DNA of 36,912 nt from Candidatus Methanomethylicia archaeon. GTDB taxonomy: Archaea > Thermoproteota > Methanomethylicia > CALHIW01. Below the pieces are notes generated by a model. The model made no database searches. It saw only the letters and a list, made by a program, of their open reading frames with translations, and had not been told where the DNA came from. Location: NCBI GenBank assembly GCA_038845975.1, contig JAWBQF010000026.1:1-36912 (forward strand), given 5' to 3'. Below are positions 7,588-36,513 of the stretch, in pieces (position 1 is the first letter of the stretch; each line of letters begins with the position of its first letter). The translations under genes were made by a program, and so were the position numbers.

Positions 7588-8610
7588 TTAACGGTGGAAA
7601 CAATACTTTATCGTTGCATCCACCAGCGCCTTAATATGTTCAGTTGGTGTTTCTAAGTGGAAGTCGCATCCAGGTGAAATCATACTTACTCCTTCACATA
7701 TACACTTATTTACCTCCTCCACAATTCTACTTATAGGTCCTGTTAGAAGAGTTTTCCTAGAGGAGATATTCCCTATTATTGGATAATTCACTCTTATTCT
7801 ATTCACTATTTCCCTTACATGCTTAATCGGCGTTGTTTCATCAACTGCTATAGCTGAACATCCAATATTAACCATTTTATCTATTATCAGTTTTGTTGAA
7901 CCGCAGATATTTAGAATAGTTGGAGTTTTTAAATGCTTAACGATTTCTTTTAGATATGGAGTAATAAATTCATCAAAGTATACTGGAGGAACTACTGTAG
8001 CTCCCATTTCATGGAATGTAATAATGTCAGCTCCAGCCTCCTCGTATGTTTTAGCTACCTCTATGAAGAAGTTTAATACTGTTTCTAGAAGTCTATGCGC
8101 CTCACTCGGATTTCTCCTCATCATAGCGAAAAATCTTACAATACCCAACACGTAATTACTTATACATGTAAATGGAGGATCTAAATACACATTTATAGGG
8201 ACTCTTCCCTCAAACTCTCTCCTTAAAATTTTTATAGCTTCTACAATGATGGGAATTCTTCCAGCATCAACTACATTTCTAGGAATTCTTACTTTAGAAG
8301 GTTCTGTAATAAATTCCTTTACGTAGGGGTACTGAATTCTACCCTCAGGATATTCTATTCTAATACCGAGAGCCTCAGCCTCAACAGCCATATCAAATGG
8401 TAAGCTTACATTATCAAGTCCACATATTCTATGTGCTGCTGAAGCTAATTTAGCCATTTTCTCAGGGTTTCTATGAGCTTCAGGCCAGTATGCATTTACA
8501 GTCTTCATAAAGTCTATTGTTGCAACACTAACAGTATTTACACATGGAACCCTATCAACATCCTCAAGATACCCTCTAAGAATACTTATAACTCTCTCGT
8601 AGGAGTTCAA
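7588..8610 (-). CDS. MtaA/CmuA-family (UroD-fold) methyltransferase, copy 1
   Basis: YWPEAHRNPEKMAKLA, LPFDMAVEAEALG, GRIP, GADII, ILNICG, GNI, SPGCD and TPTEHIKA motifs. Start moved to TTG 8610 (MNSYER, compare MSPYER in copy 2) because the longer ORF runs into an IS relic. Confidence 0.88.
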   Translation of the reverse strand: MNSYERVISILRGYLEDVDRVPCVNTVSVATIDFMKTVNAYWPEAHRNPEKMAKLASAAHRICGLDNVSLPFDMAVEAEALGIRIEYPEGRIQYPYVKEFITEPSKVRIPRNVVDAGRIPIIVEAIKILRREFEGRVPINVYLDPPFTCISNYVLGIVRFFAMMRRNPSEAHRLLETVLNFFIEVAKTYEEAGADIITFHEMGATVVPPVYFDEFITPYLKEIVKHLKTPTILNICGSTKLIIDKMVNIGCSAIAVDETTPIKHVREIVNRIRVNYPIIGNISSRKTLLTGPISRIVEEVNKCICEGVSMISPGCDFHLETPTEHIKALVDATIKYCFHR

Positions 8611-8664
8611 GGCAATCACAATAAAATTTAAACATCTCCCTATATCCTTTACTGTTTTATAGAA

Positions 8665-9208
8665 GATACTGTTACGTTTAGGTTTTTGGGGGTTTTGAGA
8701 AGTAGTCTGTTGGGGATGGTTTCTATAGATAGTCTTCTTAAAGCCCTTAGGGAAAATGGTATTTCTAGGCGTAGTAGGGTTGCTTTTAGAAGAAGTTGAA
8801 GGCATTCTATATATGGCTTAGCTATAGGGTATTGTGTATGTCTGCAAGATAGTTAATGTGGACCACGTATCCATATGGTGTTGGGTTAAGAAGCCTGGGG
8901 AGGTAGGAATTGATGTAGAGCCAAAGCATCGAAGAATCATAGATGAAGCTAAAGGAGGCTGGATATTAATTCTATGTTTAGGCTGCGATAGATGTTAAGA
9001 ATAGGAGCTTATAGCGATAAGGACTTCATGGAAGCAAGAATCCTAGATGCTTTCTGAGGCAGGTTCTGAAGCATGCATTAACAAGCTCCTAATCCTCGTA
9101 GACAGAGGCATTCACAAGCTCTTCATCTCCTAGTACAACTGAATAAGACCACACCAAACCCTAAGAAAACCACCAGCAATATATAAACATTATAAACGTA
9201 ATAGTATC
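8665..9208 (+). mobile_element. IS6-family relic (type B), decayed transposase
   Basis: 16-bp TIRs GATACTGTTACGTTTA and TAAACGTAATAGTATC (15/16). Fragments translate to VDHVSIWCWVKK, FYV*AAIDVKNR, LILVDRG and YN*IRPHQTL. Confidence 0.8.
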
Positions 9209-15998: not shown

Positions 15999-16565
15999 AT
16001 GCCAATTATGGATTTTAGCCAGATTGTAGATGAAAGCTTGGTTTATGTATTGAAGCTTATGACTGTTTCAGTAAAGACAGCTCCTAAAGCTAGAGGAATT
16101 GATAGGCTTCAAGCTATCATAGTTACAGGTGAGGAGAAAAACATTTTAGCGAATGAGATGGAAAAGCTTAAGGATGTAATGCCAGGGTTTGAGAGAGATG
16201 CTTTAAATGTTAGGAACTCTAACGCTGTTTTGCTAATAGGTTTTAAGGGTGGAAAGGGATATAATCTAAATTGTGGTGGATGTGGCTATAAGAACTGTAA
16301 GGATTTTGAAGAGAACGTTGTTAGGAAAACTGATTGGGCATTTACAGGGCCAAGCTGTATATATGACTTAATAAATTTAGGAATTGCTCTAGGCTCAGCT
16401 GTTAAAACAGCTTCAAATCTAAATGTTGATAATAGAATAATGTTTACAGTAGGTGTTGCAGCTAAAAGATTAAAGCTTATGGATGCTGACGTAATAATCG
16501 GAATACCAGTATCCTCATATGGTAAAAGCATATACTTCGATAGGATGTGGCCACCTAAAAAATAA
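15999..16565 (+). CDS. DUF2148 ferredoxin-domain protein
   Basis: KTAPKARGID, CGGCGYKNC, GPSC, LGIALGSA, VDNRIM and KSIYFDR motifs. Confidence 0.8.
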   Translation: MPIMDFSQIVDESLVYVLKLMTVSVKTAPKARGIDRLQAIIVTGEEKNILANEMEKLKDVMPGFERDALNVRNSNAVLLIGFKGGKGYNLNCGGCGYKNCKDFEENVVRKTDWAFTGPSCIYDLINLGIALGSAVKTASNLNVDNRIMFTVGVAAKRLKLMDADVIIGIPVSSYGKSIYFDRMWPPKK

Positions 16566-22463: not shown

Positions 22464-22886
22464 TTAAGCTATCCTCTTTCCTGCGTTTGGTCCAGGAGAT
22501 TGATCATATACTTCCAGAGGTTCTAAAATCCATACACCATTTATTTTGAAGCCCATTCTCTTAAGTACTTCATTAACCCCCTCATATATAGGACCTGATG
22601 TTTCAAAGCTTTTTACCCTACATCTTACTTGATACCCTAGAAACTGCATTTTTTCCGGTACAGCTTTAACTACTAGTGTTGAAATCTTCTCACCTGTTTC
22701 TCTTGCTTTAATAAGGTTTTCATGGGATTCTCTCATAAATATAGCAGCTAGAACAATAGTATTTGAGTCAGGCGCACTCATAGATCCTACTGGTATTACA
22801 TGTAGTAAATCTCCAGTTTTTGTAGCAAGAACTTTAATAGCTGAAAAATCATTAAATAGATCCTGAACATATTTAGGTAGAGGCAT
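22464..22886 (-). CDS. Pyridoxamine 5'-phosphate oxidase-like (split-barrel flavin-binding) protein
   Basis: KVLAT, GYQV, ETSGPIYE and C-terminal EVYDQSPGPNAGKRI motifs. Confidence 0.8.
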   Translation of the reverse strand: MPLPKYVQDLFNDFSAIKVLATKTGDLLHVIPVGSMSAPDSNTIVLAAIFMRESHENLIKARETGEKISTLVVKAVPEKMQFLGYQVRCRVKSFETSGPIYEGVNEVLKRMGFKINGVWILEPLEVYDQSPGPNAGKRIA

Positions 22887-23037
22887 ACGAATAATATTTA
22901 GGTAAAGTTCTATATAAATCTTTACATTAAAAATCCGGACCTGGTAACCTAATAAGTTACATAAATTCTGTTATGTTAACATTGGAAGTTTTTAGAGAGG
23001 AATAGGGCTTCGTTAAAGTTAATATTCTAGTATAATT

Positions 23038-23090
23038 CTATATTAGATGTTTGGGGAGCTAGCATTATCTGATTGTAGGTTTCTAGAGGA
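23038..23090 (-). repeat. 53-bp perfect inverted repeat, right arm
   Basis: CTATATTAGATGTTTGGGGAGCTAGCATTATCTGATTGTAGGTTTCTAGAGGA. Confidence 0.95.
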
Positions 23091-23614
23091 CGCTTTCTTG
23101 TATATATCTTCTTATTAAGCTTTAAATATCTTCCATGCTTAAGCTTATTCCTGGTTGATGTCTATGTTTACTTTTACTTCCATATGCTAAATAAACTCAC
23201 AAACTCTTAATCTAGGTAATTGTAAACTATTAAATCTCAAAATACACGGCATTTCTAAGTTTAGAATGGAATTCATTTGAATTCTATTAAGTTCTAAGTT
23301 TACTTCTTAAATTATTAGATTATTCTAGCTTATTTAGTAAGTTTAGTCACTCCTTATAGTGTATTTATAAGTTATTGAAATCTGAGAGAAGGATGCTTTA
23401 GCTCTTGATGAACTATATGTTTAAGTCTTATTGATGTGTTTATTTATTAAATTTGTAGTTGTAAACATTAAGATATTAGTACAACATCATATTTAGCGAA
23501 TATGTGGAAAATTATGTAGGTTAATATAGCCTATTAATAGACAAGTAGACTGCTTAGTAGAATCTTAGTTTAATATGAAATATAAAAAGGATGTAAAGTT
23601 GCTTAGTTAATGGT

Positions 23615-24586
23615 TTATAAAGCTGCTTTTTCAAGTTTCTCAACGAATTGAGGGAAAAGCTTGAATAGAGGATGTGTTTTCTCTTTTGGTTTTATTCCGA
23701 GCTCAACCCAAGAGCTAGCTGCAATCATAGCATTAACGACAGCGCATGCTGGAAATATCCATGATGCGGATTCGATTACTCCATATAGTAGGAAATCTGT
23801 ACCTGTGATGAGTGATGATGCTTGTACTGCTGCATCACATGCCTTAAATATATCTACTCCCCAATTTTTAATAGCTTCTTTCTTCCATACTGTTGTTGCA
23901 TTTCCAGGCGCTCCGCCAACGGGTAGTCCAAGTTCATCTTTAACTAGGAATGATGCTTTTGCACCTACTCCAATGCTTGGAACGTATGTGAATAATGTTG
24001 TATCTATTAATGGTTTATCTACATGTGCTTCTTCAGCTATTGATAGTAGTCCCTTAATTCCATTTCCACCCTTAAGAAGGGAAATAACTCCTTTTGGGGT
24101 ACGATCCTTAGTATTGTATGCTAGTAATATCGCGGATCTTATTTTAGAGTCTCTTACAGTATCTATTTCTTCAGGTTTAAACCATGGACTTGGCATGATG
24201 CTATTGTATACAGCTCTATCTGATAATCCTATTTCAGCTACATGTTTAGCACCTGCAATTCTAGCTTCAGCTGTCATGGCATCTATGAGGAAGGGTGTAT
24301 CTGTTACTTCAGCTACGAAATCGATAAATTTAATCATTGACTTGTCGGTTACACCAACAACATCAAGCATACATGGTAATCCGAAATTATCTGATAGCTC
24401 ATCCTGTTTAAGAATAAGCTTTTTAGCCTCCTCCTTATTAAATACGCCTTCCTTATGGTCTTGAACTATCTTATGGCCAGTATAGAATATTGTACCGATA
24501 AGAACTGTAGGATTCTCCCCCGGCTGTCCTCCAATCTTTACTTTACCGATTTGAAATGTTTTCTGTTCAGATTTAAACTTAAACAT
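23615..24586 (-). CDS. mtrH: MtrH-family corrinoid:pterin (H4MPT/H4F) methyltransferase, stand-alone
   Basis: MFKFKSEQK..IGGQPGENPTVLIGTIFY, PFLID, YNSI, DFLLYG and HPL motifs. No other mtr subunit genes in the window. Confidence 0.9.
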   Translation of the reverse strand: MFKFKSEQKTFQIGKVKIGGQPGENPTVLIGTIFYTGHKIVQDHKEGVFNKEEAKKLILKQDELSDNFGLPCMLDVVGVTDKSMIKFIDFVAEVTDTPFLIDAMTAEARIAGAKHVAEIGLSDRAVYNSIMPSPWFKPEEIDTVRDSKIRSAILLAYNTKDRTPKGVISLLKGGNGIKGLLSIAEEAHVDKPLIDTTLFTYVPSIGVGAKASFLVKDELGLPVGGAPGNATTVWKKEAIKNWGVDIFKACDAAVQASSLITGTDFLLYGVIESASWIFPACAVVNAMIAASSWVELGIKPKEKTHPLFKLFPQFVEKLEKAAL

Positions 24587-24594
24587 TTATTCAC

Positions 24595-24834
24595 CTATTC
24601 TTCAGGGAACTCTTTTTTGAGGAACTCATCTTTAATGAAGTTTAGAAGCTGCTCTAATTCCTCTTTGTAGAGAACAACCTTATCTGGTGGAAGACTTCTT
24701 CTATCTTCGCCACGTATTATTCTATATAGGATGTCTGCCTTTTCTCCTTCACCTACCTTTTCTATCCTGATTTTTAAGCTATCCCCTATTTTACTTTTTA
24801 TTGTATATTCCTTTATTTTTAATGGTAAACCCAT
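24595..24834 (-). CDS. Hypothetical 79-aa protein
   Basis: Its ATG directly follows the upstream TAA, and its stop overlaps the GGTGA RBS of mtrH. Confidence 0.8.
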   Translation of the reverse strand: MGLPLKIKEYTIKSKIGDSLKIRIEKVGEGEKADILYRIIRGEDRRSLPPDKVVLYKEELEQLLNFIKDEFLKKEFPEE

Positions 24835-26013
24835 TTAGACACCACCTCTTAATTCTCTCGGTACCCATTCATCAACGCTAACCCCCTCCTTAACCCATGG
24901 TGGTGGAGAACCATATTCAATAACAGCATTTACGTATGCTCTTATATGTTCTGTTGGGGTTTGTATCCAGATATCACATCCAGGATTAACTATATCGCAT
25001 CCACTATCTATTGCTCTCTTAACTCTATCTCTTATCTTCTCTACAGGTCCCTCAAATAGAACGGCGAAGGCGCTTAGATTTCCACCTATTGGGAATCTAG
25101 GTCCCTTAAGTTTATTAGCGATTCTTCTTGTTTCAATCATGGGTGTCGCCTCCTCAACTATAAAAGCATCAGCATCACATTCTATAAGTCCGCTTATATT
25201 CTCCACAATTGCATCCCCCTTCTTAGACCATAGCTCACCACAACAGTGGAGAATTACTTTTCCATATTTTCTTGCTTGAGCTATAGACTCTTTAAGGTAA
25301 GGCTGAACAAATACACGGAAAGTTTCTGGCTTTATGTTTGCAAGTGATGAAGCCTCCTCCCTATAGGTAACAATATCAGCTCCAGCTTCAAAATATGCAA
25401 TAGCAACCTCAGTAAATAATGGATTAAGAGTCTTCATGAATTCATGAACTGTTCCAGGTTCACTTCTCACGTATTTATACCATGTAGCTGTATCTACAAC
25501 ATATCCACCAATAGCTTGCCATGGGTAATCTATACTAGCAACTACAGGAACTTTCCCACCATATTTCTCCTTTAAAATTTTAATTGCCTTACATACAACT
25601 GGAACCCTCCCAAGTTCCCTCATTTTTTCTGGTTTATCTGGAATTTTAAGATCATTTACCTTTTTAACCCAGTATTTCCTAACTGAGGGCCATTTTATCT
25701 TACCCTCAAAGAAATCCAACTCAATACCTAACGCTTCCACTTCAAGTGTTAATTCAAACGGAACTATAACATTCTCTAAACCGGTAAGTTCATGAAGAGC
25801 TGAACCAAGCCTAGCCATTTTCTCAGGATCCTTATGAGCTTCAGGCCAGTATGCATCAAAAACCTCCATTCCCTCAATAGTATAAGCAGCAATAACAGAG
25901 CATGCTGGAATCCTATCAATACTATCCTTCTTCCAATTAAGTATGGCCATTAACCTCTCGTAGGGAGACATTTCATCTTTAGGATGGATTTTATATTTTT
26001 GCATAAATATCAT
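24835..26013 (-). CDS. MtaA/CmuA-family (UroD-fold) methyltransferase, copy 2
   Basis: YWPEAHKDPEKMARLG, VPFELTLEVEALG, ILHCCG and NPGCD (H-x-C...C zinc-ligand pattern). Confidence 0.9.
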   Translation of the reverse strand: MIFMQKYKIHPKDEMSPYERLMAILNWKKDSIDRIPACSVIAAYTIEGMEVFDAYWPEAHKDPEKMARLGSALHELTGLENVIVPFELTLEVEALGIELDFFEGKIKWPSVRKYWVKKVNDLKIPDKPEKMRELGRVPVVCKAIKILKEKYGGKVPVVASIDYPWQAIGGYVVDTATWYKYVRSEPGTVHEFMKTLNPLFTEVAIAYFEAGADIVTYREEASSLANIKPETFRVFVQPYLKESIAQARKYGKVILHCCGELWSKKGDAIVENISGLIECDADAFIVEEATPMIETRRIANKLKGPRFPIGGNLSAFAVLFEGPVEKIRDRVKRAIDSGCDIVNPGCDIWIQTPTEHIRAYVNAVIEYGSPPPWVKEGVSVDEWVPRELRGGV

Positions 26014-26162
26014 TATTTAACTCTCCTAAAACCTATAAACTTAACTATCGGATAACTTATCCAATTGAATACTGTAAATTAAAAACTCATGGCCTATAAT
26101 TTAATTCTCTCCCTATTTGTATTTTTTACTATTTAAAGCAGCTTTTTAGGATAACATATTTA

Positions 26163-26176
26163 GAAAAATATATAAA
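26163..26176 (+). promoter_or_regulatory. Putative BRE/TATA promoter of the corrinoid-protein operon
   Basis: GAAAAATATATAAA about 30 bp upstream of ATG 26206. Confidence 0.5.
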
Positions 26177-26205
26177 TCCCTTCCCCTAAATAAGCTGGGT
26201 TCTGT

Positions 26206-26886
26206 ATGTCTTCTAGGGAGGAAGTCTTAAATAAGCTTGCTGAAGCTGTTATTAATGGTGATACTGAGTTAGCTAAGAGTATGGCTGAAGAGGCTTTAAA
26301 AATTGGTATTGAGCCTTGGATAGCTATTACTCAAGGATTAGCTGCAGGCATGAAGGTTGTAGGTGATAAATATGAAGCTAAAGAATACTTCCTACCCGAA
26401 GTTCTGATGTCCGCGGATGCTATGTATGCTGGTCTCGATGTTCTACTTCCACATTTAAAAGCTGGAGAAGCAGGTGTTAGAGGAAAAATTGTTTTAGGAG
26501 TTGTTGAGGGAGATATACATGATATTGGTAAAAACATCGTTAAGGCAATGCTTACAGCAGCAGGATTTGAAGTTATAGATGCTGGAAGAGATGTACCCGT
26601 ACAGAAATTTGTTGAGCTTGTTGAGAAGGAGGGAGCTCATGTACTGGGAATGTCCACAATGATGACTCCTACACTTCTATCAATGAAGAGAGTTGAGGAA
26701 ATTCTAAGGCAGAGAGGACTTAAAGAAAGAGTAAAGACAATAATAGGTGGAGGAACTGTAACCGATGAGTATAGAGAAAGAATAGGGTCTGATGCTTACG
26801 GTAAGGATGCTGTAGAAGCAGTAGATAAGGTAAAAATGCTCATCCAATCAATACTTGCAGCTGCTGAACTGGTAAAGAAGGAATAA
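26206..26886 (+). CDS. Methyltransferase corrinoid protein (MtaC/MtbC-like)
   Basis: EYFLPE cap domain, B12-binding GDIHDIGKNIV, GMS and IIGG motifs. Confidence 0.94.
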   Translation: MSSREEVLNKLAEAVINGDTELAKSMAEEALKIGIEPWIAITQGLAAGMKVVGDKYEAKEYFLPEVLMSADAMYAGLDVLLPHLKAGEAGVRGKIVLGVVEGDIHDIGKNIVKAMLTAAGFEVIDAGRDVPVQKFVELVEKEGAHVLGMSTMMTPTLLSMKRVEEILRQRGLKERVKTIIGGGTVTDEYRERIGSDAYGKDAVEAVDKVKMLIQSILAAAELVKKE

Positions 26887-26914
26887 AACAATTCACCTTT
26901 TTTTTGGTGATTTT

Positions 26915-28918
26915 ATGGCTTTAGAAAGAGAGGTTAAGCTTCGTGAAGATGAAACTATAGTTGTCTTCCAACCCTACGGAAGAAGGGATATATTCAAAAA
27001 GGGCGTAAATCTACTTGAAGCTGCTAAAAGACTTGGAGTTGATATTTCATCAATATGTGGTGGTAGAGGACTATGCGGTAAATGTAAGGTTAAAGTTATT
27101 AAGGGATATGAGCATCTAAACCCGCTTCAAGAATCTGAAAAGAAATTTCTAACTGGGGAAGAAATGAAGGAGGGATATAGACTTGCATGTCTCGCACAAT
27201 CATATGCTCCATTTGAAGCTATAATCTTCGTGCCTGAGAGAAGTAGAGTTGGTAAGCAGCGTCTACAAACAGAAGGAATTGAAGTTCCTGTTAAGAGACT
27301 GAATCCAGCTATTAGGAAATATTTTGTAAAGATGAAGCCACCAACATTAGAGGATGCAACATACGATGATGAAAGAGTATTAAGAGCATTAGCTGAACAG
27401 CACGGTATAGTTAATGTTGACTTCGACTGGTATACATTAAGAACTCTTCCTAAAATATTAAGGGATGCTAACTGGGAGGTTACCGTAGTTCTATGGAAGA
27501 ATAAGATAATAGCTGTAGAGCCTGGAGATACTACAAGTAGATGTTTCGGTTTTGCATGTGATATTGGAAGTACAAAGCTTGCAGGGTTCCTAATGGATCT
27601 AAATACGGGAAAAGTTGTTTCAGTAGCTGCAAGAATGAATCCTCAAATACCGTATGGAGAGGATATTTTAACTAGATTAACATACGTATTGTTTAATGAG
27701 TGGAAGGGACTTGAAGATCTACAGAAAGCTGTTGTTGGAGGTATTAATGAAATGATAGATGAATGCTGTCAGAAAGCAAATGTTAAGCCTGAGGAAATAT
27801 ATGAAACAGTATTTGTAGGAAATACTGCAATGATGATGTACTTCCTTAAAATATGGCCTGAATACGTAGCTAAAGCCCCATACCAACCTCCCAGACTATC
27901 AGGAGTTGATCTTCCAGCTAGAGAAATAGGAGTTAAATCTCATCCTAATGCTAACCTTTACTATCTAGATACTATTGGTGGATGGGTTGGTGCAGATAAT
28001 GTTGCAAACATGGTAGTGACTAAGCTATTTGAATCTAATGAGCTTGGAATGTGTATTGATGTGGGAACAAATACTGAAATAGGTATCGGATGTAGAGAAA
28101 TGGGCGGTGTACTATATAGCTCCTGTGCTTCAGGACCTGCTTTTGAAGGCATGATGATTAAGTATGGTATGAGAGCTGCTGACGGTGCAATAGAGAAGAT
28201 AACAATAGATCCTGAAACATTAGAGCCTATTTATAGAGTTATTGGTGATGTTAAGCCTGTAGGTATATGTGGATCAGGAATCGTTGATATAATGGCTGAA
28301 ATGTTCAAGTCAGGAATAATAGATTGGAGGGGAAGATTCAATACGAAGCTTAGTGAGAAGACTAAGAGAATAAGAAAAGGACCTGATGGAATATGGGAAT
28401 ATGTTATTGCATGGAAGGAGGAAACAGCAACTAAAGAACATGATATTGTATTCACACATAACGATGTTAGAGAGATTCAGAAGGCTAAAGCAGCAATACA
28501 TACAGCCGCTTCAGTATTATGTAAACTACATAACGTAACGGAAATGGATATAAAAGTTCTATATGTTGCAGGAGCATTCGGAAACTATCTTGACCCTGAA
28601 AACACTAGAACAATAGGTATGTATCCTGAAGTTCCCATAGAGAGAATTAAATTCATAGGAAACTCAGCTGGTACAGGTGCACGTATGGCTTTAATCTCTA
28701 TCGATGAAAGAGAATATATAACCAGGGCTATAAAAGAAGGAAAAATAAAACATTATGAAATATCATCATATCCTAAATTCTACGACGAATATCTTGCATC
28801 AACATATATTCCACATAAAGACCTAAATAGATATCCAATAACAATCGAACTGATCAAAAGACTTGGTACACATCCAGAAATAGAAGAAGAATTAAGAAAA
28901 CAACAAACTATAAAATAA
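26915..28918 (+). CDS. ASKHA-domain reductive activator of corrinoid proteins (RACo/DUF4445), copy 2
   Basis: Same 2Fe-2S and ASKHA motifs as copy 1; GGTGA RBS at 26906-26910. Confidence 0.93.
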   Translation: MALEREVKLREDETIVVFQPYGRRDIFKKGVNLLEAAKRLGVDISSICGGRGLCGKCKVKVIKGYEHLNPLQESEKKFLTGEEMKEGYRLACLAQSYAPFEAIIFVPERSRVGKQRLQTEGIEVPVKRLNPAIRKYFVKMKPPTLEDATYDDERVLRALAEQHGIVNVDFDWYTLRTLPKILRDANWEVTVVLWKNKIIAVEPGDTTSRCFGFACDIGSTKLAGFLMDLNTGKVVSVAARMNPQIPYGEDILTRLTYVLFNEWKGLEDLQKAVVGGINEMIDECCQKANVKPEEIYETVFVGNTAMMMYFLKIWPEYVAKAPYQPPRLSGVDLPAREIGVKSHPNANLYYLDTIGGWVGADNVANMVVTKLFESNELGMCIDVGTNTEIGIGCREMGGVLYSSCASGPAFEGMMIKYGMRAADGAIEKITIDPETLEPIYRVIGDVKPVGICGSGIVDIMAEMFKSGIIDWRGRFNTKLSEKTKRIRKGPDGIWEYVIAWKEETATKEHDIVFTHNDVREIQKAKAAIHTAASVLCKLHNVTEMDIKVLYVAGAFGNYLDPENTRTIGMYPEVPIERIKFIGNSAGTGARMALISIDEREYITRAIKEGKIKHYEISSYPKFYDEYLASTYIPHKDLNRYPITIELIKRLGTHPEIEEELRKQQTIK

Positions 28919-29695
28919 TACATTTTTAATTTTTATATTCTAATCCTACTGTTAGATACTAGTAAAATAATTGTAAGGTTAACTATGAAGTTATTGTAAA
29001 ATATTCAGATCTTATTTTTGATTTTGTGAGCTTATTGATGGTGAATAGAGCCTATTAGCTTCTTCCATATAATTGTCTCTTAACGTTAGATGTTCAAGTA
29101 GTAGTATTATTATGTATGCTATCTGTTAGATTCTGGAAATGTTGATGTATCCTCTCGTATTCTTTGAATGCTTTAGCCATACGAAAATCTTTCAACAGCC
29201 TCATTTCATACTCTTATAGATTTCCCTATTGAGTCTATATGGTCCTCAAAGTATTGGTTTACACTTGTTCTCTAGGTTGAAATTTATACTTCTCTTACCT
29301 CTCTATGCTTGAGGTAACTCTTACTCCTAGTATGCTAAGTCGCCTACAACTCTATAGCATGCTTAGCCTCCAAATCCCTGAAAGCATATAAAGTGGTTTA
29401 GGTCATACCCATTAACTAGCCTAGCCTGAATGCTTAACAGCATCACGTGATATAAGCGTATACCTCCCAACATCCTTGATATGCTTACATACATTATCTA
29501 ACTAGTCTCTCTTAGCCTTAATAGTTTACCATCAAAACAGTCCTATCTAGATCTATTCATAGTAAACACTATCTATTAAGGCCTAAATACATCAACCTAT
29601 ACCTCTAACGCTTCAATACTAAAACAATCCTATATGAGTCATACTTAAAACCATACGCATCAAGACAATAACATAAGAATACCATTGTCCACGGA

Positions 29696-30410
29696 GGCTT
29701 TGTTAACTTTAGATTTATTTGGGAGTTCACTCCCCTATTTATGGTGTGTTTATGGTTAAAGTTATCAAGTTTGTTAGGGAGAGAACCCCATTTACTCTAG
29801 TTGTTTATTGCTTATATATATTTTCGTTCTTCTAGAATGGCTTCGGATATTCTAAGCTTTATTATTTTAGGTTATGTATCTATATTATCGTGGTTTATCT
29901 TAATCTTCTATTGATAGGAGGGATGCTAGGATTATGGTTGATGATACTATTACTAGTGTAGGTTCTAAGAGTAAGATTGTTTATGTTGCATTCGAGCCAT
30001 TATTAAGAAGAATTCTATATGTATGGGTTTGTGATGCTGCAACATGCTTACATCTCTAACATTCCTTAAAAGATTAGAGCTATTTACGGTTCTAATATAG
30101 TTGTATTAAGTGATGGAGCTCATTATTATAAAGCATCATGTAGAATATTAAACTTAAAACATTGTATAGTTTAGAGGTTAGGAATCTAATGGAGAGAATA
30201 ATACAGTATATTAAGGATAGAACTAGATTATTTGATGATTATATACCGTGTGTGAAGGATAAATGCGGTAATGAGCATGCATTAATGCTTATGAAGTCAA
30301 TAGCATACATACTGAACAAACATGGATTAATAAGAAAATAAAAGCTAAGGAATTCATAGAAACACAATACCAAAATAGAGGTGATAAAACATGCTTAAGT
30401 TAACAAAGTT
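29696..30410 (+). mobile_element. IS6-family relic (type A), longest copy (715 bp)
   Basis: GGCTTTGTTAACTT...AAGTTAACAAAGTT ends. Fragments translate to VVLSDGAHYYKASCRILNLKH and RNLMERIIQYIKDRTRLFDDYIPC, with frameshifts. No TSD seen. Confidence 0.88.
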
Positions 30411-30591
30411 AGCAAACCTAAAGAAAAACTTAAATAGTTTCCAGATGAGCTCTTACATAAAATACAAGAAATGAGTACTAAGCTGCAAAAGCTAAAGCTC
30501 TAAATAATGCTAAACTTAGATAGTTGAAAGTTATAGTTTCACATCATTAGTTACACAATAATTTTATAAGTATAAATGGTTACTAATAGTA

Positions 30592-31095
30592 ATGATTATT
30601 AAGGAAATTCCTATTGTAAAATCTCCACGTTACTCAATTGAAAACATAAAGAAAATAGCTATTCTTTCTCTTGGAGTGGTAGATAAGGAAATTATTGATG
30701 AGAAACGAATACTGATTGAAGCTAGAATCTTTGTTTGCCCAACACAAGTAATAATAGAGGATCAAGATGGGATTTACGATGTAAAGATACAGTTCGTATG
30801 CATAACTGATAACTGTAACTTTAAAGATTTATGTGGTAGAATAATTGAGGAGAAAGCCTCTAAGTTTAAGAATATTCTCCCCCCTCCACCTCAAAAATCT
30901 AATGAGGATATAGAATCAGTAATAATTAAAATACTTAGAGATAAAGAAAAAAATATCAATGATATCCTAAATGAGCTAATGAAATATTCATTAAACTACT
31001 GTCCAGATACTTTAGTTCAGATTTTACTTAGAATGGAGAGAAATGGAAAGATAAAAAAGAAATTCTCTTTAGGAAAATATTTATGGTATATATAA
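30592..31095 (+). CDS. Hypothetical protein with probable C-terminal winged-helix domain
   Basis: Intact 167-aa ORF with a TATA-like TTTTATAA about 25 bp upstream and a wHTH-like tail (LVQILLRMERNGKIKK..GKYLWYI). Confidence 0.65.
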   Translation: MIIKEIPIVKSPRYSIENIKKIAILSLGVVDKEIIDEKRILIEARIFVCPTQVIIEDQDGIYDVKIQFVCITDNCNFKDLCGRIIEEKASKFKNILPPPPQKSNEDIESVIIKILRDKEKNINDILNELMKYSLNYCPDTLVQILLRMERNGKIKKKFSLGKYLWYI

Positions 31096-31371
31096 TTTGC
31101 CATGTTAACTTGGATATTCTTTCATCATTTCTCTTGTGGATTCTCATAATTTAATGTTCCCATAAACGATGACTACATAAACTTACTAAAGAGCATTAAG
31201 GCTTATATAATGTCTACAGCAATCAAATAGTTGCTCCGGCTTTATCAATTAAGTATGGATATATTCTGAATTTAAGAAATACTTTTTATCATGTTAGGAT
31301 TAGCGGAAAGGAACCATAATATGTTAATGGCTAGGTAAAGCTTATATGCTATGACGAATTAACCTCATAAT

Positions 31372-31617
31372 GTGTTTAAGTATATTTGCATGATCTGTAA
31401 ATTTGAGTTTGATACCGATTCATCAATATGTCCGATATGTCGATCTAAAAGCTTCATTTTAATATCTAAGAAGCCAGCATGTCGTGATTGTGTTTACCAT
31501 ACTATGCTACATATTAGTAATTCTGATTATAGTTACTGTACATTACTAGATATTCATGTAAGACCTGACAGAATGATATGCCAGAAATTCTCAAGAAAGC
31601 CAATAAACTATATGTAA
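31372..31617 (+). CDS. Small Cys-rich zinc-ribbon protein
   Basis: CMIC..CPIC, then CRDC..C..C. Confidence 0.65.
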   Translation: MFKYICMICKFEFDTDSSICPICRSKSFILISKKPACRDCVYHTMLHISNSDYSYCTLLDIHVRPDRMICQKFSRKPINYM

Positions 31618-31833
31618 TTACTATAATTATAAATACTCTAAATTGATAAAAACTTATTTAAATTTCTTATTTTACTCAACGCATTCATCTTTCTAAGCTA
31701 TATCTAGAGAATTAGTTTAATAGGCTGCAATAATGGTATCCTACCCATTAAATAATCCATATTTATTAATCATGCCAATATAGGATAAGACATCTCCCGC
31801 TTAAACATCTAGATTTAATAGGATACATGAATT

Positions 31834-32361
31834 GGCTTTGTTAATTTAAGCATGTTTATTACCTCTATTTTGGTATTGTGTTTCTATGAATTCCTTAGCT
31901 TTTATTTTCTTATTAATCCATGTTTGTTAGCTATGCTATTGACTTCATAAGAATTGATGTACGCTCATTATCACATTTATCCTTAAGGTATGTAGTTATC
32001 GAATAGCTTAATTCTATCCTAATATAATGTAAGTATGTTGCAACATCGCAAACCAATATGTAGAGAATTCTTCTCAATAGTGACTCGAATACGACATAAA
32101 CAATCCCCTCATAGGCTTATACTTATAATAGTATCATCAACTATAATCCTAACATCCCCTATCAAACCCAAACAGCTTAAAGATTAAACCACAATAATAT
32201 AAAACAACCTAAACAATAAAGCTTAAAATATCTGAAGCATTCTAGAAGAAAATATAAGCACCATAAACAACTAGAGTAAATGGAGTTCTCTCCTAACAAC
32301 TTTAACCATACTAACACCATAAATAAGGAAGAACCCAAATAAATCTAAAGTTAACAAAGCC
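31834..32361 (-). mobile_element. IS6-family relic (type A), internally deleted (528 bp), with 8-bp TSD
   Basis: GGCTTTGTTAATTT...AAGTTAACAAAGCC ends; CATGAATT at 31826-31833 and 32362-32369. Confidence 0.92.
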
Positions 32362-32417: not shown

Positions 32418-33662
32418 TTGCTGGAAGCATTTATTTCATCATTTCTAGCTAGTAAGGTTCTTAAAGATATTAGTTTTTCACATGATGTTAATATTCATTT
32501 GATAAGTACTGTGAATCCATCTCTTAATATTCGTGTCCCATTCTGTAGGTTTCAATGTCCCTTTTGTTTATTTGTGAATTATCCATATAATGAGGCTATT
32601 AGTGACCTATATGTAAAAGCGGTTAAACGGGAATTGAAGCTTTACTCAACATATATTAAGGAATCCACAATTGAAAACATTTATTTTAGTGGGGGGACTC
32701 CTTCGCTTATTTCAAATAGACTAGGTGATATTCTAAACTGTATTCATGAGTTGTTTGGGTTTATAGGTAATGTAGCTATTGAAGTAAATCCCCTAGATCT
32801 TAATGATGAAACACTAAGTAGACTAGTAAATACAGGTATAAATCAGATAAGTATTGGTATTCAGTCTTTTAATAGTGGTGTGCTAGAAGGTATAGGTAGA
32901 AAGTATAGTAGTGAAGTGGCCTTAAACGCTGTGAAAAAAGCTATGGATGGTGGATTTGACTATGTCAATATTGATTTAATGTTTCCATTACCAAATCAAA
33001 CCGTAAGCTCCCTACTTCAAGATCTTGAAATAGCTGTAAAGCTTGGTGTACATGGAATATCTACATATCCCCTTATGCTACTACCATATACGGAAATGTA
33101 TAAACAGCTTAAAGATAGGAGTGTAAATATAAAGAAAATGGAGAAGGAAATGTATATGTTGATACTGGATTATTTGATGAACGTTGGATATGATGTTCGT
33201 AGTATATGGAGCTTTACAGTAAAACCAGGTTTTTATAATGGTCCTTTTGAATATGATGAGTATTTAGGTATAGGTCCCTATGCATGGGGGATTATAGATA
33301 ATTCATTTATTATTAATACTCCTCTACTTGAGGAATACCTTGTAATGGTTAAGAAAAAAATCCCAATAGCTGCTTTAGCTAGATTTGAAGGGGAGAAATC
33401 GATGATTATTTGGCTTTCAAGAAGCCTCTATCATGGTAAGGCTAGTAAAACTGAGTTTTATAAACGGTTTAAGGTAGGTCTAGATAAAAAGTTTAAATGG
33501 TTAATTTACCTGATGCGTTTATCAGGACTAGCTGAATGGAATGCGGATTCTCTAAGATTAACTAGGAAGGGCTTACTCTATGGAAGCCTTACAACTAAAA
33601 AGATAGTAATAGGGTTACTTATGAAGATGCATAAAGCAACAGGATATTATCCACCATTATAG
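32418..33662 (+). CDS. HemN/coproporphyrinogen III oxidase-like radical SAM protein
   Basis: VPFCRFQCPFC (CxxxCxxC), FSGGTPS, IEVNP, ISIGIQSF and NIDLMF motifs. Confidence 0.88.
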   Translation: MLEAFISSFLASKVLKDISFSHDVNIHLISTVNPSLNIRVPFCRFQCPFCLFVNYPYNEAISDLYVKAVKRELKLYSTYIKESTIENIYFSGGTPSLISNRLGDILNCIHELFGFIGNVAIEVNPLDLNDETLSRLVNTGINQISIGIQSFNSGVLEGIGRKYSSEVALNAVKKAMDGGFDYVNIDLMFPLPNQTVSSLLQDLEIAVKLGVHGISTYPLMLLPYTEMYKQLKDRSVNIKKMEKEMYMLILDYLMNVGYDVRSIWSFTVKPGFYNGPFEYDEYLGIGPYAWGIIDNSFIINTPLLEEYLVMVKKKIPIAALARFEGEKSMIIWLSRSLYHGKASKTEFYKRFKVGLDKKFKWLIYLMRLSGLAEWNADSLRLTRKGLLYGSLTTKKIVIGLLMKMHKATGYYPPL

Positions 33663-34682
33663 CCTACGTTTTATACTCTCAATTCTCCTAGTAACCGTAT
33701 CCCCGCATTGACATGACTTATCAATAAGTCTAGTAATATCTCCAGTTCTATATCTAACTATAGGCATTCCCCTCCTACTAATAGATGTTAAGACAAGCTC
33801 CCCCTCCACCTCAGGCTCTAACGTTTCTCCCGTGTTTGGATCTATTATCTCAGCATATACATCCACTTCATTAAGATGCATTCCCTCATGTACTGCGCAC
33901 TCCATAGCTACAGTAAATCCCATTTCAGTAATGCCATAATGATCAAATACTTCACATCCCCATATATCCCTAAGCTCCCTCTTCATCAAATCGGTAAATG
34001 GATGAAAAACACATCCATGACATGTGATTACTGATTTCAATTTGAGCTCTTTAAGTATCGATGGAAAGTTCTCCTCACACCATTCACTAAAATAAAAGAT
34101 ATGGAGTGCAGGACCAATAAGTATTTGGGGTCTTAAACTTTTCAATGATTGAAGCTGAACTTCAAATTGTAATTCATCTACTACTACTCCTCTACCTCCA
34201 GCCTTTCTTACTGCCCCCTCCAAGATTTGTTGAATACCCCATTCAGCCTCTCTAGGAACTGCTATTTGAACGGTATCATTTCTATCTAGATTAGCTATTT
34301 TAAGCCCAAACATTGTAGCCTCCACTATACGTATCAATTCATCCTCAGTAAAGAATATCCTCCTTATTTCTCCATCAACATCTTCAACAGTAAATCCTCT
34401 TAGAATTTCGCTTTGGGATACACATAGAAATCTATAAGGATTCCCTGCTATATGACTTGGCAATGTAAAGGGAAGCTTAGAGAAATCCTTAAAATCCCTT
34501 ATTCTCTTAGGCCTAATACCGTACTTTCTATAGATTTCCCTATAGAATGGGCTTCTCTCATAAACATACTTAACAGTATCCCTCAACTTTAGAAGTAGAT
34601 ATCTCTCAAACTTCTCCCTACTTAATTTACCATTTCGAAAAACCTCTATTACGTTATTTTGAATCCATGGTATTAACGACAT
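33657..34682 (-). CDS. Phenylacetate-CoA ligase (PaaK/F390 synthetase)-like protein, short and with degenerate P-loop
   Basis: SPFYR, LPFT, HYGITEMG, EIIDP, GELVLTS and RYRTGD motifs. Confidence 0.8.
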   Translation of the reverse strand: MSLIPWIQNNVIEVFRNGKLSREKFERYLLLKLRDTVKYVYERSPFYREIYRKYGIRPKRIRDFKDFSKLPFTLPSHIAGNPYRFLCVSQSEILRGFTVEDVDGEIRRIFFTEDELIRIVEATMFGLKIANLDRNDTVQIAVPREAEWGIQQILEGAVRKAGGRGVVVDELQFEVQLQSLKSLRPQILIGPALHIFYFSEWCEENFPSILKELKLKSVITCHGCVFHPFTDLMKRELRDIWGCEVFDHYGITEMGFTVAMECAVHEGMHLNEVDVYAEIIDPNTGETLEPEVEGELVLTSISRRGMPIVRYRTGDITRLIDKSCQCGDTVTRRIESIKRRL

Positions 34683-34990
34683 GGTTTAAACACAATAGCT
34701 ATGTTTTCTTTTAAAGCCAATCCAGCTTCAACCTCTATACATTTCAGTATAGCTATTGGTATAATACATGAAGGATGAGGGATTATACTCCTTGAAAGCT
34801 TTAACACTAAATTATCATCAAACTTCTTAATACATTCCCTAATATCCACTTTACATAGTAGATCCCCAAGTAACTTAATATGTCTACATGAACTTTCAAT
34901 CTTTATATTAGCTTCATGGTCATTAATCATTAAAACCTCAATTAATGCTTTAAACCTGCAAGGACCTGGAAAAACATCAACAGCTACCAT
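34673..34990 (-). CDS. Small Cys-containing protein (DUF6951-like)
   Basis: PGPC.F, SSC.HI and HPSCIIP..KCIEVEAGLAL motifs; overlaps the PaaK-like start by 10 bp. Confidence 0.7.
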   Translation of the reverse strand: MVAVDVFPGPCRFKALIEVLMINDHEANIKIESSCRHIKLLGDLLCKVDIRECIKKFDDNLVLKLSRSIIPHPSCIIPIAILKCIEVEAGLALKENIAIVFKPCR

Positions 34991-35032
34991 ATGGATCAGT
35001 TATAATATAATATCATATAAAATCTTCTTATA

Positions 35033-35602
35033 CTAGGCTATTAATACTAATCCATATGAGGTAACTATATCTGATGTGGATGTATATACTTTAGATTTAT
35101 ATCCTGCCCTTTCTATAGTTGCCGATACATTTATACCCATGGACTCCATAGCTGGACGAGCTATTTCCGGATGTCTACACTTCCCCGGTTGAAGTGCGCA
35201 TTCACTACAGAGTAGACACGGTCCACCAGTCATTGCAAAAGCGAGCTGATACCCGGAGAGAAATATCCTTCTCTCTAATTCCGCAGCTATCTTCTGTAAT
35301 ATTACCATATCCTTAATTGAGTGAATACCTCCCTCAAAAACCCCTTTAGGTATTGCTGACGAAAAATGCACTGCAAAAAGCAATCCCAAATTATATTCAC
35401 TAATGATCTTTACAGTTTGCTCTGGAGAAGGGCTAAAGGGAGGACATGTAAGATAGTGTCCATAAAACGGGCAACCGTACTGACACTTAAGTCTTATTCT
35501 ATTTTCCACAACTATGCAATTAGTATCAATAATTTTTGCATCTATAGCACCGAGCTCCCTGGCTAACTCACAAAATCTAACAATACCTATAGAGGGCTCC
35601 AT
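35033..35602 (-). CDS. DUF2284 metal-binding protein
   Basis: KCQYGCPFYG..TCPP, GPCLLCSEC, CRHP..ARPAMESMGINV and YGLVLI motifs. Confidence 0.85.
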   Translation of the reverse strand: MEPSIGIVRFCELARELGAIDAKIIDTNCIVVENRIRLKCQYGCPFYGHYLTCPPFSPSPEQTVKIISEYNLGLLFAVHFSSAIPKGVFEGGIHSIKDMVILQKIAAELERRIFLSGYQLAFAMTGGPCLLCSECALQPGKCRHPEIARPAMESMGINVSATIERAGYKSKVYTSTSDIVTSYGLVLIA

Positions 35603-35856: not shown

Positions 35857-36513
35857 GTGGTCCCGGATATTAAGATTTTAAGTGTGATTAGAAGTCTTTG
35901 TGAAAAGAGGGCAGATAAGGTTCCTCCACTCTTCAATGAGTACCATGTACTTAAGACTTTACTAATACTTCAACAGCGATCCGCTAGTAGAGAGTTGCTA
36001 GCAAGGGAGTTACGTATTGGTGAGGGCTCTATACGAACATTAATTGGTAAGTTGAATAAGTATGGATTAATATCTACATGTAGAAGATATGGATGTTCAT
36101 TAACTGATTCTGGAAAACAGATCATTGATGAATTTAAAAAAATTGTACCAAAAGTAGTTCTTAATATTGATCTGAGGAAGTTACGCTTAGGCTATTTTAA
36201 TGCAGGATTATTAATAAGGGGCCTCCCAATTTATAATAAGTCAGGAACTATACTGCGAATTAGAGATCTTGTAATTCGGAATGGTGGTGATGCAGCTCTT
36301 ATTCTACAGGTAACAATAAATGGAGTTATTATTCCTCCAATGGGTGTTGATGATTCTGTATATGAGGATTTAAGAAGAATTAAGAAAGCTTTAAATCCAG
36401 ATCAAGATGATTTAATTATTATCTCGTTTGCTCAAACACTATATGCTGCTGAGAAATCACTGCTTATGACGTTAATTACATTCTTAAATGATAGCGTTAA
36501 AACTTATAAATAA
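35857..36513 (+). CDS. Winged-HTH protein (DUF4443-like), putative regulator
   Basis: SRELLARELRIGEGSIRTL, G.SLT..G and RDLVIRNGG.AALI motifs. Confidence 0.75.
   Translation: MVPDIKILSVIRSLCEKRADKVPPLFNEYHVLKTLLILQQRSASRELLARELRIGEGSIRTLIGKLNKYGLISTCRRYGCSLTDSGKQIIDEFKKIVPKVVLNIDLRKLRLGYFNAGLLIRGLPIYNKSGTILRIRDLVIRNGGDAALILQVTINGVIIPPMGVDDSVYEDLRRIKKALNPDQDDLIIISFAQTLYAAEKSLLMTLITFLNDSVKTYK

Follow-up and report, generated by a model that had tools for sequence, protein, structure and literature searches.

We analysed one 36,912-nt stretch of a Candidatus Methanomethylicia archaeon (contig JAWBQF010000026.1), here called the window, and in it a module at 23615–28918 that consists of two divergent operons. 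The minus-strand operon encodes a methyltransferase of the uroporphyrinogen decarboxylase (UroD) fold, a 79-aa protein and an MtrH-like methyltransferase for a pterin, tetrahydromethanopterin (H4MPT) or tetrahydrofolate (H4F); the plus-strand operon encodes a corrinoid protein and a RACo-type reductive activase (Table 1). The module is a genuine soluble, cytoplasmic corrinoid-dependent methyl-transfer system, and it represents, in rearranged form, an archaeal cluster that recurs and whose methyltransferase clade is uncharacterised. A previous interpretation made from the letters alone, here the sequence-only reading, had described a five-gene divergent module at this place. A check against the list of open reading frames (ORFs) returned exactly its coordinates, and four of the families were confirmed by strong Pfam and NCBIfam matches.

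Table 1. Genes of the methyl-transfer module, its intergenic region and the distant paralogs in the window
Feature	Position	Strand	Evidence
MtrH-like pterin (H4MPT or H4F) methyltransferase, 323 aa	23615..24586	-	PF02007, E 1.7e-91
Conserved 79-aa protein	24595..24834	-	No Pfam or NCBIfam match
His-type UroD-fold (MtaA/CmuA-like) zinc methyltransferase, 392 aa	24835..26013	-	PF01208, E 1.7e-62
Divergent intergenic region, 192 nt, AT-rich, TATA-like elements for both operons	26014..26205	.	Read from sequence
Corrinoid (cobamide) carrier protein, 226 aa	26206..26886	+	PF02607 (B12-binding_2) and PF02310 (B12-binding)
RACo-type reductive activase, 667 aa	26915..28918	+	PF14574, PF17651, PF17650, PF00111
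Asn-type UroD-fold paralog, 405 aa as listed	7588..8805	-	PF01208, E 2e-70
Second RACo activase, 651 aa	13920..15875	-	68% identical to first RACo

The gene spacings fit two operons: the 79-aa ORF starts 0 nt after the stop of the UroD-fold gene and ends 8 nt before the MtrH-like gene, RACo begins 28 nt after the corrinoid protein gene, and the divergent spacer between the operons has TATA-like elements as putative promoters for both. The window is AT-rich (GC 0.29–0.41) and has archaeal gene content: Lhr helicase, aldehyde:ferredoxin oxidoreductase, DUF4443 and pyruvate phosphate dikinase (PPDK). Among named proteins, PPDK is closest to those of ‘Sulfolobales archaeon’ metagenome-assembled genomes (73%) and of Thermoproteus/Pyrobaculum (69%), whereas the relatives of the module carry the labels Nitrososphaeria or Bathyarchaeia; from these the organism is probably a member of Thermoproteota.

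The Pfam scan took 27 of the 40 window ORFs of at least 80 aa, plus the 79-aa ORF. The other 13 (up to 267 aa) fell outside it; ten lie inside or antisense to longer assigned genes, the longest being antisense to the MtrH-like gene, and three lie at 1.8–2.7 kb. Among the scanned ORFs there was no match to MtaB, MttB, MtmB, MtbB, MtrA-G or methyl-coenzyme M reductase (MCR), no PF06253 (MttB-family) protein and no transporter family. The sequence-only reading had listed the four methyltransferases, the membrane Mtr subunits and mcr as absent, and the scan agrees. It did not note two further genes of the window, a second UroD-fold methyltransferase (the Asn-type paralog of Table 1) and a second RACo; the window therefore has another candidate substrate-side enzyme. 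Rfam and tRNA scans of the window found no RNA genes, and a repeat scan of 22800–29400 found only short pairs at chance level.

We call the UroD-fold protein of the module His-type after the histidine of its zinc motif. Translation may in fact begin at an internal Met near residue 15. It scores over the NF004889 cut-off (245.4 versus 244 bits) and just under that of TIGR01463 (225.4 versus 235.4), and with 225.9 bits it does not reach the cut-off of 400 of the MtaA equivalog NF040654. A heme-pathway uroporphyrinogen decarboxylase was considered and rejected (hemE model, 49.1 bits versus a cut-off of 302.95). The protein matches Methanosarcina mazei MtaA (4ay7) with E 1.4e-48, and its H256, C258 and C346 align to the LHICG and PGCG of that enzyme and are invariant in 31 of 31 clade members. 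We take these three residues to be the zinc ligands, as in MtaA and MetE; the H-x-C...C zinc motif named in the sequence-only reading is kept. An AlphaFold (AF2) model built from 31 clade members has a pLDDT of 91.1. The best solved fold match is again MtaA (4ay7_A, TM-score 0.92 normalised by target length, 31% identity), and MetE is found among the distant matches (ranks 28–49, TM-score about 0.5, query-normalised).

A word-indexed homolog search with the His-type protein gave 144 proteins at E ≤ 1e-10. Among the best 120 of the 144, the top two are metagenome proteins with 94% and 85% identity, and the best named ones are from ‘Nitrososphaerales archaeon’ metagenome-assembled genomes (73% and 68%) and ‘Candidatus Methylarchaceae archaeon HK01B’ (69%). 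Bathyarchaeota homologs follow at 47–53%, then those of Syntropharchaeia, Hodarchaeota, Freyarchaeota and Jordarchaeales at 36–43%; MtaA-named proteins are about 30–36% identical.

The MtrH-like protein passes both NF002142 (326.5 bits, cut-off 287) and the mtrH equivalog (303 bits, cut-off 271.4), and does not reach the MtgA equivalog NF047990 (255.2 bits, cut-off 550). Its matches in the Protein Data Bank (PDB) are near-equal, MtrH 8z9u_B at 1.5e-66 and Desulfitobacterium hafniense MtgA 6sj8_A at 5.4e-63. A remnant of a membrane Mtr complex was rejected, as there are no other Mtr genes among the scanned window ORFs. In the homolog search (1213 proteins at E ≤ 1e-10), the closest of the best 120 is 93% identical, and the best named ones are from Hodarchaeota (63%) and Bathyarchaeota (59%). 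A tree of 52 rows was made from the window protein, the MtrH-like proteins of at least 250 aa from the related loci described below, and 35 of those 120 homologs picked at intervals. In this tree, which has no canonical MtrH, MtoA or MtgA rows, the window protein falls in a 30-row group (SH-like approximate likelihood ratio test, SH-aLRT, 94) with the MtrH-like proteins from the UroD operons of loci L013, L015, L017, L024, L025, L027, L030 and L032. The hosts of these grouped operons, which also have corrinoid protein and RACo genes, are Bathyarchaeia and Hadarchaeota.

The corrinoid protein has both expected domains (B12-binding_2, E 6e-22; B12-binding, E 4e-26), a DxHxxG motif at residues 103–108 (D103 to G108) and a score of 222.3 bits against TIGR02370 (cut-off 215.3); it reaches none of the substrate-specific equivalog cut-offs of NCBIfam. 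The activase has all three RACo domains and an N-terminal 2Fe-2S (Fer2) domain with Cys48, 54, 57 and 92. An assignment to AcsV itself was rejected (AcsV model, 491.6 bits versus a cut-off of 800).

Related loci were collected by scanning GTDB species genomes with two peptide patterns, taken from an alignment of 35 clade members. The patterns matched 161 stretches, of which 101 were confirmed and the best 80 kept, yielding 68 loci; the sample is shaped by the two patterns and is not exhaustive. The best related loci are 67–71% identical, so that the source species is not among them, and the hosts of the cluster are Bathyarchaeia, Hadarchaeota and Methylarchaeales-like Nitrososphaeria. Synteny was read from TBLASTN hits of the window proteins to the 68 loci that covered at least half of the query. 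Bathyarchaeia and Hadarchaeota have the order His-type UroD, MtrH-like, Asn-type UroD, corrinoid protein, RACo. This five-gene order is complete in L015, L017, L025 and L032; in L013 no corrinoid protein was detected, L009 and L011 have no intact Asn-type gene at the usual place, and in L012 the genes are rearranged. In the Methylarchaeales-like order an Asn-type UroD gene is divergent from the corrinoid protein and RACo genes, which are followed by the His-type UroD and 79-aa genes (L001, L002, L004, L006 and L018; partial in L003 and L007). L004 and L006 are flanked by housekeeping genes (ThiDN, CTP synthase, CoA synthesis). The Syntrophoarchaeum cluster has an Asn-type UroD, a corrinoid protein and a RACo gene.

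Co-occurrence was counted within 5 kb, and since many loci end at contig ends the absences are upper bounds. Leaving out the window's own gene, a corrinoid protein gene neighbours 22/25 His-type genes and 21/37 genes of the rest of the clade; the figures are 19/25 and 21/37 for RACo, 12/25 and 10/37 for the MtrH-like gene, and 10/25 and 3/37 for the 79-aa gene. An Asn-type gene lies by 16/25 His-type genes, and a His-type gene by 16/37 of the rest. No other cluster gene was present in 14 of the 46 loci with a clade gene. The window itself has its corrinoid protein and RACo genes directly beside the His-type gene, and its Asn-type paralog 16 kb off. The module had been described as self-contained in the sequence-only reading. 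That description does not hold, as relatives pair the same genes with an Asn-type paralog and the window also has one, together with a second RACo.

A quick IQ-TREE phylogeny (SH-aLRT support, midpoint root) was made from 101 of 107 UroD-like ORFs, dropping six shorter than 300 aa. Both window paralogs are in a 64-row archaeal clade with SH-aLRT 100. Inside it a His-type subclade of 26 rows (SH-aLRT 100) has H-x-C in 26/26 rows; the other 38 rows have N-x-C (33), S-x-C (2), S-x-P (2) or Y-x-P (1). The window His-type protein is in a 10-row group (SH-aLRT 100) with Methylarchaeales-like rows, and the window Asn-type paralog is placed among Asn-type rows on a long terminal branch (0.7 versus a median of 0.14). 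In this midpoint-rooted quick tree the Methanolobus and Methanovirga rows lie outside the 64-row clade, as do fused UroD-corrinoid proteins of 584–594 aa. The MtaA equivalog was passed by four of 17 scanned locus proteins (L057, L059, L063 and L053; 417–470 versus 400 bits), all outside the 64-row clade, whose members score 233–277 bits. By its equivalog score and by its clade, the His-type protein stands apart from true MtaA and does not fall in a characterised clade of this tree.

Several observations were made on the related loci in passing. Some Bathyarchaeia UroD/MtrH/corrinoid protein/RACo operons lie in ‘methyltransferase islands’ with MttB-superfamily or MtmB-family genes and extra corrinoid protein genes (L011 8503–9957, L012 2824–4287, L024 5562–7268, L025 15953–17341 and L033 5703–7079). 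L014, in a 5.09-Mb record labelled as the chromosome of Deltaproteobacteria bacterium bin73, has a His-type UroD 71% identical to that of the window, with the same neighbours as Bathyarchaeia-labelled L005; its bacterial label suggests gene transfer or a chimeric assembly. The UroD-like frames L063 7989–9191 and L009 1935–3125 have one in-frame stop each, for which a pseudogene, codon recoding or an ORF call extended too far may be the reason.

The Asn-type paralog is 36% identical to the His-type protein and scores 262.4 bits against the MtaA equivalog (cut-off 400). Its motif LNICG replaces the LHCCG of the His-type protein, exchanging the zinc-ligand His for Asn. The homologs have nothing that corresponds to the first 64 residues of the 405-aa ORF, which are of low complexity. 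The likely true start is a GTG near 8619, some 35 nt downstream of a TATAAAA, from which the protein would have about 343 aa like those of the relatives. Only two alignment positions split the paralog types at a conservation of at least 90%, His256/Asn and Glu220/Met; His256 and Glu220 are found in 26/26 His-type rows, and Asn and Met in 33/33 Asn-type rows. The two fixed changes suggest that one paralog has a remodelled metal site while the other has one of the thiol type. Its company with the His-type gene and this putatively remodelled metal site make the Asn-type paralog a candidate for loading the carrier with methyl groups, and it, rather than the zinc-type protein, may be the substrate-side enzyme.

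By TBLASTN, most RACo genes of the related loci match the second window RACo slightly better than the first. When the window was searched by TBLASTN with its own proteins, neither a second corrinoid protein gene nor a remnant of one turned up. Divergent from the second RACo gene is that of a DUF2148 protein with a ferredoxin-like domain (15999–16565), which could conceivably supply electrons to the activase.

The 79-aa ORF is a real gene of a conserved, narrow family under purifying selection. Its homologs lie beside the His-type UroD gene in 10 loci, always next to it. Ten aligned homologs have a mean column identity of 66% and 19 invariant columns, and the ratio of nonsynonymous to synonymous rates (dN/dS) is 0.06–0.30 in the five of eight pairs with unsaturated dS. 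The family is narrow, for a profile search of 1.84 billion representatives gave only five matches at E ≤ 1e-3, all of at most 84 aa; no fused form was found in that search. The gene is co-directional with the His-type gene and almost abuts it in the Nitrososphaeria-like loci and the window, and is divergent from it in three Bathyarchaeia loci (L024, L028 and L029). The AF2 model has a moderate pLDDT of 70.9, with three strands and then helices. Foldseek of this model against the PDB gave 0 matches at E ≤ 1e-3, the best Atlas feature score was 0.78, below lead level, and when 10 members were scanned against Pfam at permissive settings no match was better than E 0.03. Complex prediction with the His-type enzyme scored 0.00 in two runs, which has no bearing either way. 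From its gene neighbourhood, the 79-aa protein is probably an accessory of the His-type methyltransferase in one branch of the His-type enzymes.

The functional parts of the module are the same as those of the Cmu and Mto systems, as the sequence-only reading had it. CmuA is one polypeptide with methyltransferase and corrinoid domains; in the module these are separate genes on opposite strands. The Mto systems of Methermicoccus shengliensis and Archaeoglobus fulgidus resemble the module in having a UroD-superfamily enzyme, a corrinoid protein, an MtrH-like protein and a 2Fe-2S RACo. MtoB, however, is MtvB-related and apart from MtaA/CmuA, whereas the module enzyme is MtaA/CmuA-like with a thiol-type zinc motif; the module also has no adjacent transporter genes, and its 79-aa gene and Asn-type paralog are additions. 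MtaA shares the UroD fold and the aligned H-x-C...C motif with the His-type enzyme, but the latter is below the equivalog cut-off, in a separate clade, and encoded with an MtrH-like protein and its own carrier and activase. The Methanosarcina pairs MtpA/MtpC and MtsA/MtsB likewise combine an MtaA-family thiol or thioether enzyme with a dedicated corrinoid protein; by their descriptions they differ in delivering the methyl group to coenzyme M (CoM) and having no MtrH-like partner.

The remaining comparisons concern the link to the pterin. In the MtrA-H complex the catalytic subunit is of the MtrH family and the overall chemistry may be the same, but the module has no MtrA-G among the scanned ORFs, a B12-binding-domain carrier instead of MtrA, and no membrane part. 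The corrinoid-MtrH couple of Bathyarchaeia, Methanomethylicia and Culexarchaeia and the MtgABC system of Desulfitobacterium have, like the module, an isolated mtrH beside a corrinoid gene, with methyl transfer to or from H4MPT proposed; their known partner is of the MttB superfamily, in contrast to the UroD-fold paralogs here. MtsF (CmtA) of M. acetivorans, cited for transfer from methyl-H4MPT to CoM, resembles the module as a soluble route between methyl-H4MPT and a thiol that bypasses the membrane Mtr. It is a single fused protein, whereas the module would split the task over three proteins with an MtrH-like pterin enzyme. The module is therefore not MtaA proper, MtgA, an Mtr complex or a fused CmuA.

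Kurth et al. 2021 (PMC8630106) define MtoABCD, with an MtrH-like MtoA that demethylates methyl-MtoC with H4F, not CoM, and an MtvB-related MtoB; the same mto cluster is reported in A. fulgidus by Welte et al. 2021 (PMC8359953). Ou et al. 2022 (PMC9478090) describe Methylarchaeales with MCR, mtaA/mtbA-type genes, no complete Mtr, and an MtrH nearer to MtoA. For the corrinoid-MtrH couple of Bathy-6, Loh et al. 2021 (PMC7886697) had no identified substrate-specific methyltransferase and considered a possible anabolic role. MtrH with MttB-like partners is described by Valentin-Alvarado et al. 2024 (PMC11291895) and Kohtz et al. 2022 (bioRxiv 10.1101/2022.04.06.487207), and an MttB-superfamily enzyme for methoxy-aromatics in Bathyarchaeia by Yu et al. 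2023 (PMC10989822). Syntrophoarchaeum MtaA and corrinoid genes, according to Benito Merino et al. 2024 (PMC10811742), were once proposed for butyl-CoM conversion; these MtaA-labelled genes are Asn-type in our UroD tree. Fu et al. 2019 (bioRxiv 10.1101/548461) show MtpA as an MtaA homolog that uses mercaptopropionate, not CoM, and cite MtsF for transfer from methyl-H4MPT to CoM. In the literature, in which subscription journals and supplements were not visible, we found nothing on the His/Asn paralog pair or the 79-aa family. The sequence-only reading had named the module its best candidate for an undescribed system; parts of the idea are already in print, namely the MtrH-corrinoid couples of Bathyarchaeia, the MtoA-like MtrH of Methylarchaeales and the soluble route through MtsF.

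Our best explanation, which we hold tentatively, is that the module is a cytoplasmic methyl hub that connects H4MPT, through the MtrH-like protein, to a thiol, through the zinc His-type enzyme, by way of the corrinoid protein. RACo-type proteins perform the ATP-driven reactivation of Co(II) corrinoid proteins, MtrH-family proteins exchange methyl groups between a corrinoid and a pterin, and MtaA-family zinc enzymes catalyse the alkylation of a thiolate by methyl-Co(III), or the reverse. In the module, RACo would use ATP and a low-potential electron to bring the corrinoid protein from inactive Co(II) to Co(I). The MtrH-like enzyme would connect the corrinoid protein by methyl exchange to a pterin (most likely H4MPT), and the His-type enzyme, with an MtaA/MetE-like zinc site at His256, Cys258 and Cys346, would connect it in the same way to a sulfur nucleophile. 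The net reaction would be CH3-H4MPT + R-SH -> H4MPT + CH3-S-R, soluble and non-pumping; with no membrane part, the module would pump no sodium. The leading candidate for the thiol would be CoM if the organism is a methanogen like its Methylarchaeales relatives, and otherwise homocysteine, sulfide or a small mercapto acid.

The Mtr reaction has about -30 kJ/mol toward methyl-CoM, and since it runs toward the thioether, a soluble system should run from the pterin to the thiol. Moving a methyl group from a thioether or methyl-CoM to H4MPT would be uphill by about 30 kJ/mol, so the zinc-type enzyme is more plausibly on the thiol-acceptor side. The sequence-only reading had put the zinc MtaA homolog on the substrate side, and this energetic cost, with the Asn-type alternative present in the window, speaks against it. 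Alternatively, the MtrH-like and His-type enzymes could be two exits for a methyl group loaded on the carrier by another methyltransferase, for which the Asn-type paralog would be the best candidate.

Several points weigh against the hub that we favour. No MtrH-like gene was found by TBLASTN in the locus DNA of the seven Methylarchaeales-like loci (the flanks of L004 and L006 were also scanned), so the link to a pterin is not obligatory. To our knowledge Bathyarchaeia and Hadarchaeota mostly do not make or use CoM, and since they are the hosts of most His-type/MtrH-like operons, the thiol there would have to be another one. Methyltransferases encoded next to their corrinoid protein (mtaB-mtaC, mttB-mttC) are usually substrate-side. 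In the related loci it is the His-type gene that accompanies the corrinoid protein gene, and the 14 of 46 loci counted above have an Asn-type gene by itself; this pattern fits a substrate-side His-type enzyme, as in the sequence-only reading. CmuA-type enzymes have the same zinc motif and use it on a methyl halide, so that the motif is no proof of a thiol.

The least improbable of the rival explanations, unlikely as we judge it, is the catabolism of methylated sulfur compounds, the main proposal of the sequence-only reading. The His-type enzyme would then be substrate-side, as MtsA and MtpA are, and would move methyl groups from dimethyl sulfide (DMS), methanethiol or methylmercaptopropionate to the carrier, from which the MtrH-like enzyme would hand them to H4MPT for oxidation or acetyl-CoA synthesis. 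The zinc H-x-C...C motif and the tight linkage of the His-type gene to a corrinoid protein gene are both as this would have it, but the step from a thioether to H4MPT costs about +30 kJ/mol and a soluble system has no ion gradient with which to pay. Fu et al. 2019 (bioRxiv 10.1101/548461) give on the one hand a precedent, an MtaA homolog (MtpA) that acts substrate-side on a thioether, and on the other call the methylation of cob(I)alamin by a thioether thermodynamically unfavourable; the operon does occur in lineages for which methyl transfer to H4MPT has been proposed (PMC7886697). Methoxydotrophy of the Mto type is quite unlikely. It would make one or both UroD-fold proteins the O-demethylase, with the corrinoid protein as MtoC, the MtrH-like protein as MtoA and RACo as MtoD, and the four functional parts are indeed alike, including the 2Fe-2S RACo and the MtrH-like second methyltransferase. 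The Asn-type paralog, without the thiol-type His, could take an oxygen-linked methyl group, and the Methylarchaeales MtrH is nearer to MtoA than to the Methanosarcina MtrH (PMC9478090). MtoB, however, clusters with MtvB-related enzymes in its own group beside the MtaA/CmuA family (PMC8630106). The window UroD proteins score as MtaA/CmuA-like and have MtaA as best solved relative, in a comparison where MtoB is known by description only, and no transporter of the major facilitator superfamily (MFS) or efflux type lies beside the module among the scanned ORFs, unlike in the mto operons.

The module could also be an anabolic, split form of cobalamin-dependent methionine synthase, in which the MtrH-like protein would load the carrier, the His-type enzyme would methylate homocysteine and RACo would replace the reactivation domain. 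This would be a special case of our best explanation and is, as a reading of its own, decidedly unlikely. The parts would match the modules of MetH one-to-one, MetE is a distant fold relative of the His-type model, as noted above, and the housekeeping neighbours in Methylarchaeales-like loci are as such a role would have them; an anabolic role of the corrinoid-MtrH couple has been raised before (PMC7886697). Two methyltransferases and two activases exceed the need of an anabolic step, however, and the Bathyarchaeia clusters lie in islands of MttB/MtmB-family genes, which suggests catabolism. A methyl halide system is highly improbable. Here the module would be a split CmuA with a CmuB, the His-type enzyme taking the methyl group of chloromethane or bromomethane and the MtrH-like protein passing it to the pterin. 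The reaction is thermodynamically downhill, and the architecture fits that of CmuA (an MtaA-like domain plus a corrinoid domain) with an MtrH-like CmuB. Yet the proteins are separate, the fused UroD-corrinoid proteins lie outside the clade, and the window has no sign of halide metabolism; CmuA was compared by description only.

Joining these parts to the hub gives a wider picture that is possible, though doubtful as a whole. The His-type enzyme, corrinoid protein and MtrH-like protein would together be a modular soluble counterpart of Mtr, or an analogue of a split MetH, without ion pumping. The changes from His to Asn and from Glu to Met would mark a division between a thiol side and a substrate side on one carrier, the paralog pair would supply the corrinoid-MtrH couple of Bathyarchaeia, Hadarchaeota and relatives with its missing substrate-specific methyltransferases, and the 79-aa protein would be a lineage-specific subunit or regulator.

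The rest of the window has further features. Directly downstream of RACo, within 29730–32331, there is an AT-rich stretch of low coding density with an imperfect inverted repeat (arms at about 29730–30388 and 31855–32331, with segments 76–95% complementary) that encloses a 167-aa ORF without family (30592–31095) and a Cys-rich 81-aa ORF (31372–31617); it may be a mobile or invertible element. A 152-aa ORF at 1609–2067 matches only the C-terminal part of a phage integrase (PF00589 positions 57–168 of 172) and is probably a fragment. The 247-aa protein at 12129–12872 has no significant family and a weak Rossmann-like N-terminus (E 0.004–0.009). Homologs 36–37% identical to it (L005 8091–8855 and L014 11052–11828) have a His-type UroD gene on one side and, on the other, a small B12-domain gene plus an MtrH-like gene; the protein may be part of the methyl-transfer system. 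A putative regulator, DUF4443/PH0730-like, is encoded at 35857–36513, 7 kb from the module; a gene of this type is directly beside the Asn-type UroD in Heimdallarchaeota-labelled L016 (9188–9847). The region 32418–35602 has a HemN/ChuW-like radical SAM gene, DUF6951, a metal-binding DUF2284 and a DVU_1553-family AMP-dependent ligase (277.2 bits, cut-off 300).

Many genome-based claims of the use of methylated compounds by Bathyarchaeia, Asgard archaea, Hadarchaeota and non-euryarchaeal methanogens rest on isolated mtrH genes beside corrinoid genes. The papers cited here on such genes assign the substrate side to the MttB family or leave it unassigned. The window and the 68 loci point to a recurrent pair of UroD-fold paralogs as partners of this corrinoid-MtrH couple, and two diagnostic residues, at positions 256 and 220, separate the paralogs. 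Should the pair turn out to be another methanol- or methylamine-type CoM methyltransferase, the finding would be ordinary. The value of the finding lies mainly in offering specific, testable candidates for the partners that the archaeal corrinoid-MtrH couple has so far lacked. Characterising the pair would settle the methyl donors or thiol acceptors of abundant sediment and hot-spring archaea, and would show whether, outside Methanosarcina, H4MPT and a thiol are connected without ion pumping.

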